DNA of 15,296 nt from a virus (lineage: Duplodnaviria; Heunggongvirae; Uroviricota; Caudoviricetes): the IMG/VR virus record IMGVR_UViG_2879770953_000001; one strand, 5' to 3'. This document shows positions 14,783-14,816 of this stretch, piece by piece. The first letter of the stretch is position 1. Each line of letters starts with the position of its first letter. Made by a program: the position numbers and the translations under genes. The notes under the pieces were generated by a model. It did not search any database. It was not told the origin of the DNA and saw nothing but the letters and a program-made list of their open reading frames with translations.

Positions 14783-14816
14783 CCCCCCCCCCCCCCCCCC
14801 CCCCCCCCCCCCCCCC
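14783..14816. repeat. Homopolymeric poly-C tract of about 34 nt
   Basis: Uninterrupted C run (G on the minus strand) about 40 bp upstream of the invertase ATG and about 55 bp beyond the MxiE-box-like motif. The exact length is uncertain by a few nt. Confidence 0.85.

Follow-up and report, generated by a model that had tools for sequence, protein, structure and literature searches.

Results

A poly-C tract between ipaHb and a pin pseudogene

The window, by which we mean the whole stretch of 15,296 nucleotides analysed here (one strand of IMG/VR record IMGVR_UViG_2879770953_000001), is a decayed tail and baseplate module of a tailed phage that carries many IS elements. Its positions 2511-15296 are 100% identical to CP026098.1, so that the tract described below is part of a deposited genome, that of Shigella flexneri FDAARGOS_74, whose predicted serotype is 3a according to a published table (PMC9455713). 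The window is internal to this 4.58 Mb chromosome, and its downstream neighbours in relatives are yfhH, yfhB, tadA, mltF and purL. Between positions 1 and 12500, elements of the IS600, IS2 and IS66 (ISSfl3) types, identified from annotations in relatives, break baseplate and tail-fibre genes, and the N-terminal gene of the tail fibre is split into several ORFs by comparison with relatives. The right part of the window contains the following features.

12511..14337, minus strand: ipaHb (ipaH2610, class 5), coding for a T3SS E3 ubiquitin ligase effector of 608 aa (ORF; RefSeq annotation of orthologues; Pfam LRR_TTSS and NEL)
14338..14680, minus strand: 5' UTR of ipaHb, 343 nt, with the proposed TSS at 14680 (mapping of PMC3299695 projected onto the window)
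14697..14732, no strand assigned: perfect palindrome with 16-nt arms and a 4-nt loop, containing the MxiE box (repeat search; also terminator-like on the plus strand)
14713..14729, minus strand: MxiE box GTACTGTTTTTTTAAAG, at -49 to -33, matching 15 of the 17 positions of the consensus GTATCGTTTTTTTAnAG
14715..14744, plus strand: promoter-like TTAAAA-18-TATAAT, facing the tract and pin (consensus scan)
14782..14816, plus strand: poly-C tract
14817..14833, plus strand: 17 nt, GACTTTTGACGCAGTGT, from the tract to the start of e14-type homology, forming the right end of the AT-rich ipaHb cassette (BLAST and alignments with intact prophages)
14856..15296, plus strand: pseudogene of a pinE-type serine invertase, 146 codons followed by TAA (RefSeq 'internal stop' in EIEC orthologues; Pfam Resolvase only)

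Counting of the letters gave a run of 35 C on the plus strand (G35 on the strand coding for ipaHb), a value which is the consensus of the FDAARGOS_74 assembly, depends on technology and is only as good as that consensus. An earlier note, made from the sequence alone, had reported about 34 nt at 14783-14816; the tract was indeed present at this position, its start and length being one base short. The same note had placed it between the ipaH promoter region and the invertase start, and this was borne out, the tract having the minus-strand MxiE box on one side and, 39 nt further on at 14856, the start codon of the pin pseudogene on the other. No other homopolymer of at least 10 nt is found within the 15.3 kb window, where the runner-up is a T9 at 11828. 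An arithmetic estimate (15.3 kb, both strands, C = 24.3%) yields an expectation of about 1e-17 such runs, and chance therefore cannot account for the tract. It is not contained in any supported ORF: the small ORFs which cover it are mechanical poly-Pro or poly-Gly frames, none of them on record as a called gene, and reading of the sequence revealed no frame fusing the tract with pin. An Rfam scan of the whole window produced no match.

The tract lies just inside the right end of the ipaHb cassette

The pin pseudogene, which is 95% identical to K-12 pinE, has a stop at codon 147; it has retained the catalytic domain and lost the C-terminal DNA-binding domain. The same TAA is present at this codon in all Shigella species and EIEC examined, with an identical 146-aa product, and this product was found in 756 blocks of an assembly index, those of S. 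dysenteriae Sd197 and S. sonnei 53G among them. Since the stop is the same everywhere examined, the inactivation either predates the spread of the prophage carrying ipaHb or travelled along with it.

Homology to K-12 e14 and other pinE loci begins at 14834 in BLAST alignments, about 22 nt before the pin ATG. In E. coli EC20017429 (NZ_CP071711.1 4286415-4291873), the same yfhH site is taken up by an intact related prophage, which comprises an invertible segment containing tail-fibre and tfa genes, the site pix TTCTCCCAAACCAACGTTTATGAAAA and a full-length pinE. Alignment with this prophage shows that, in an e14/Mu-like prophage, pix and the invertible tail-fibre segment have given way to the AT-rich ipaHb cassette, to which all DNA on the left of 14834 belongs, the tract included. 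The tract sits 17 nt inside the right end of this cassette.

Such a position, near a boundary between cassette and prophage DNA, would be compatible with the tract being a junction of some kind, either a dC/dG-tailed cloning junction, as the earlier note had considered, a vector or contig boundary, or a relic of pix. The TTCTCCC preceding the run moreover repeats the opening 7 bases of pix. Over its full length, however, pix is matched at only 9 of 26 positions, and the offset from pin is wrong, the match lying 49 nt before the ATG instead of the 80 nt seen for pix in intact prophages; the pix relic was therefore rejected. Nor is anything foreign joined at the tract, since the junction recurs in more than 40 further assemblies from Shigella and EIEC, with identical and contiguous flanks on both sides of a C6-C7 run, and the window is internal to a chromosome. 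Homopolymer-tailed cloning is refuted by these contiguous flanks and by the C6/C7 seed found in every related genome, and the probability of any form of junction is practically nil.

We also considered the tract as a crossover site of the Din family (Pin/Gin/Cin/Hin). Such sites are 26-bp imperfect palindromes, TTCTCCCAAACC-AA-CGTTTATGAAAA-like, occurring as an inverted pair that flanks a segment. The tract fails in this respect, with its 9/26 match and different offset, and neither an inverted partner nor repeats defining an invertible segment could be detected in 11500-15296. The locus shares with the Pin/Gin/Cin switches of e14, Mu and P1 a pinE orthologue ending a tail-fibre module, and the intact version is the one located at the yfhH site of EC20017429; but in Shigella the ipaHb cassette has taken the place of both pix and the segment, and a stop at codon 147 truncates pin. 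The tract belongs to no inversion system.

Tract length varies in S. flexneri and is fixed elsewhere

Run length was measured between the invariant flanks CCCAATTCT and GACTTTTGAC in complete and draft genomes, the set being without the Sanger-era S. flexneri genomes 301, 2457T and 8401. All lengths are consensus values of assemblies made with differing chemistries. Outside S. flexneri, the copy on the yfhH side had only C6 or C7 (15 assemblies, among them EIEC, S. dysenteriae Sd197, S. sonnei 53G and others). The upstream region of ipaH class 5, to which ipaHb is assigned in a published class table, has a modal length of 491 nt (PMC9046306), and this length corresponds to C7. In S. flexneri, the yfhH-side copy ranged from C4 to C35 over 18 assemblies and reached at least 13 in 12 of them, with the following values.

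FDAARGOS_74: C35
FDAARGOS_713: C30
CAJFBA01: C23
CAJFAR01: C20
CAJFAX01: C19
NEDR01: about C18, beside an N gap
CP182555, CP182556 and CP178302: C17 each
ATCC 29903: C15
CP130061 and LR213455: C13 each
CP026765 and AR-0425 (CP044152): C9 each
CP189683, CP007037 and LR861788: C7 each
CP066809: C4

The earlier note had called for a comparison of the locus in related genomes, and the outcome was that the contiguous flanks are the same while the run differs in length. No SNP was found in the 6.3 kb flanks between FDAARGOS_74 (C35) and FDAARGOS_713 (C30), other 3a genomes having C19-23. The 3a clade as a whole has at most 6 SNPs in these flanks, yet it displays C19-35 in the better assemblies. In a neighbour-joining tree built on the 6.3 kb flanks, tract length changed much faster than the flanks themselves. 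The run reaches about 19-35 nt in the 3a clade, and about 7-15 nt in the clade of the 2a type. This is the pattern of an SSR hypermutable locus, in which copy number differs and flanks are constant. Near-identical S. flexneri genomes thus differ mainly in tract length, which supports the proposal of the earlier note that length changes by slipped-strand mispairing. In all 636 kb of fetched loci, every homopolymer of at least 10 nt corresponded to this tract. A search of metagenome and viral collections for the junction, including versions with at least 9 C, retrieved a single viral contig, with C7, and the junction was not found in a phage collection.

There is a duplicate of ipaHb, preceded by the same upstream region of 491 nt and located beside pgl or mdtA. 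At the pgl-side copy, pin is cut after 96-104 nt. No further paralogue of the ipaHb upstream region was detected in E. coli genomes. In SFBU1023, ECMA0423 and CAJFAX01, the paralogous copy had C7, C7 and C6, the corresponding yfhH-side values being C17, C17 and C19.

Assembly error is unlikely to explain the long tracts

The earlier note had also suggested an assembly artefact. According to this explanation, the true S. flexneri run would be about C7-C9 and the higher values would result from inflation during long-read consensus or polishing. It would account for the difference in tract length between near-identical genomes, for the C4 and C7 read by Nanopore or hybrid assemblies of the same clade and for the C7 read by short-read contigs carrying this ipaHb. 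However, the latter contigs stop exactly where the paralogues diverge, short-read assemblies collapsing the two ipaHb loci, so that they are not assignable to the yfhH-side copy and their C7 may be that of the other one. CP066809 (C4) is a Nanopore assembly (PMC8549364), and LR861788 (C7) has nearby indels and a broken ipaH; both belong to the 3a clade, and their values may reflect either real contractions or homopolymer compression. By contrast, 12 independent assemblies from several laboratories have at least 13 C, and at this site alone in 636 kb. In three of these genomes the paralogous junction, with identical flanks, was called C6-C7, indicating that assemblers do not inflate the short run, and non-flexneri assemblies from the same long-read programmes were all C6-C7. 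Homopolymer errors of long reads are usually small or compressive, and an inflation of 28 nt would be unlike them. A pure artefact is thus largely refuted by the independent long assemblies and by the paralogues, and we regard a mostly artefactual tract as highly improbable. NEDR01000001.1 contains, at about 15260-15345, some 55 N and a garbled left flank ggaccccccaat directly beside C18; this gap is an assembly failure of the kind expected for a real homopolymer that is hard to read.

The comparison supports a genuine hypermutable mononucleotide repeat. Literature searches on poly-C or homopolymer tracts in Shigella returned nothing relevant and no paper on this tract.

Rearrangements near the tract

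The tract region was a repeated breakpoint across the loci fetched from relatives (EIEC RMDEC465, positions 760-800 and 1720-1760; CP119443.1; and locus positions 3440-3460/4220-4240, 12950-12990 and 140-165). An element of the IS110 family was located inside the run, with CCCCCCG on both sides, one of the IS4 family was flanked by an 11-bp duplication, CAATTCTCCCC, and an IS1 was inserted 30 nt to the left of the tract. In one S. flexneri genome, the second ipaHb copy was joined, right after C6 and G, to the interior of mdtA, and both novel joints read CCCCCCGTTAC.

The tract is located outside the mapped ipaHb promoter

Bongrand et al. place position +331 of the ipaHb transcript at -13 from the start codon and remark on a C at the expected TSS (PMC3299695); in agreement, position 14680 of the window is a C on the minus strand. 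The MxiE box was identified by comparison with a published consensus (PMC9769918). It occupies -49 to -33 relative to the TSS (PMC3299695), and the positions held to be essential in that study (G6, T10, T12 and A16) are all retained. The minimal MxiE-regulated fragment extends from -57 to +11 (PMC3299695). The tract corresponds to -102 to -136 of the ipaHb TSS, 52 bp past the MxiE box, and it is thus outside this fragment. The suggestion of the earlier note that the tract could alter the geometry of the ipaH promoter is not supported by these positions.

Within 14697-14744, the MxiE box forms one arm of the palindrome, the other arm being a box with 5 mismatches on the plus strand, and a perfect TATAAT is found 21 nt after the latter. 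The palindrome and the TATAAT could constitute a divergent candidate promoter, possibly influenced by MxiE and directed toward the tract and pin. The consensus scan detected 4 promoter-like sites in all, for 2.4 expected, making it weak evidence for TTAAAA-18-TATAAT. If this site were active, the tract would extend from about +31 to +65, in the leader RNA of a dead gene. It was the only plus-strand candidate, and no sigma-70-like site overlapping the tract was detected by the same scan. The earlier note had placed the tract where a promoter for the invertase would be; the tract may or may not affect such a promoter, and the invertase is in any case a pseudogene that has lost pix and its invertible segment.

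We weighed a regulatory role, in which the tract would be a contingency or rheostat element whose length modulates the transcription of either ipaHb or an RNA that extends into pin. Conceivable mechanisms include a change of spacing or phasing relative to the MxiE box, the interruption of H-NS-bound AT-rich DNA by a rigid G/C block, and the formation of a G-quadruplex or i-motif by G35/C35. Such a role would be in keeping with the position of the tract between divergent genes, where an activator site is only 52 bp away, with its high polymorphism inside one pathogen lineage and with the persistence of long tracts in several lineages. The DNA concerned is AT-rich, windows spanning 13501-15000 (the 5' part of ipaHb and its upstream region) having 36-40% GC, and H-NS silences the genes that depend on MxiE (PMC9769918). 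Taken alone, the minimal promoter of ipaHb is weak, for a reason left unexplained by the authors (PMC3299695), and the plus-strand TATAAT site would transcribe through the tract. Against this role, the tract is outside the MxiE-regulated fragment and free of overlapping sigma-70-like sites, no copy of pin is intact, a fixed C6-C7 suffices for the paralogous ipaHb copy as well as for every other Shigella species, and tract lengths show no preferred values. Furthermore, in known promoter-type phase variation the repeat is located between promoter elements, or between an activator site and the -10, which is not the case here; the tract is neither in a supported ORF nor between core promoter or activator elements, where the repeats of phase-variable contingency loci are found. 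On balance, a regulatory role of this kind appears unlikely to us.

Discussion

The most likely interpretation of the tract is that of a neutral, slippage-prone repeat rather than a switch. We attribute a probability of roughly 70% to the reading that it results from replication slippage in a decaying prophage, has no regulatory role and is neutral or nearly so. The ancestral state is a C6-C7 run, which EIEC and the Shigella lineages other than S. flexneri, such as S. dysenteriae and S. sonnei, have preserved. The yfhH-side copy of S. flexneri would then have passed a length at which replication slippage becomes frequent, and it has drifted up and down since. The number given by any assembly is the consensus of a probably mixed population, filtered by sequencing chemistry. 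Slippage is probably the mechanism, in view of what is established for simple repeats. We infer that the length changes are neutral, or nearly so, because the tract is outside the mapped promoter and its other neighbour is a pseudogene whose product would have no substrate. As other species and the paralogue keep C6-C7, there is also no anatomical reason to assume a function. Random slippage leaves unexplained why long tracts persist in several lineages instead of collapsing, and why only the yfhH-side copy has expanded.

The poly-C tracts of Bordetella pertussis fim2/fim3, the poly-G of porA and poly-C of opc in Neisseria meningitidis and the poly-G of Treponema pallidum tpr share with the Shigella tract an intergenic G/C run beside a virulence gene, and a length polymorphism between close relatives that is best explained by slipped-strand mispairing. 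In these phase-variable promoters, the runs lie between the -35 and the -10, or between an activator site and the -10, and measure about 8-17 nt. The Shigella tract, by contrast, is 52 bp past the activator box, outside the minimal promoter and up to 35 nt long; it resembles them in mutational behaviour and fails their defining position. With the polymorphic non-coding mononucleotide repeats of E. coli, used as SSR loci for strain typing, it shares the character of a neutral intergenic homopolymer of strain-variable length. The E. coli repeats typically stay below some 10 nt, with length differences of one base or a few, whereas the Shigella tract spans 4-35 nt and is the sole run of at least 10 in 636 kb. 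It is closer to these neutral repeats than to phase-variable promoters, but far longer.

A bolder proposal would be that the long G/C block upstream of the MxiE box tunes expression of IpaHb in S. flexneri, insulates it from H-NS or forms a G-quadruplex, in a heritable and rapidly reversible manner. We consider this very unlikely. If it were true, a Shigella effector would for the first time have a contingency locus based on a simple repeat, one acting away from the core promoter, and any effect on ipaHb expression would add a new layer to the control of effectors by MxiE and H-NS.

Even if the tract is neutral, as we favour, it matters in practice when S. flexneri genomes are assembled, when indels are called and when isolates are typed at a fine scale. 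As a rapidly evolving marker it could split near-identical isolates, and it can be expected to cause breaks in assemblies and false indels next to a virulence gene of a diagnostic target family. It is exceptional for homopolymers to reach 20-35 nt in Enterobacteriaceae, and hypervariability driven by repeats is outside the usual picture of Shigella genome evolution. The locus, even as a neutral one, offers a natural test case for the tolerance and maintenance of long G/C runs in an enterobacterium proficient in mismatch repair.
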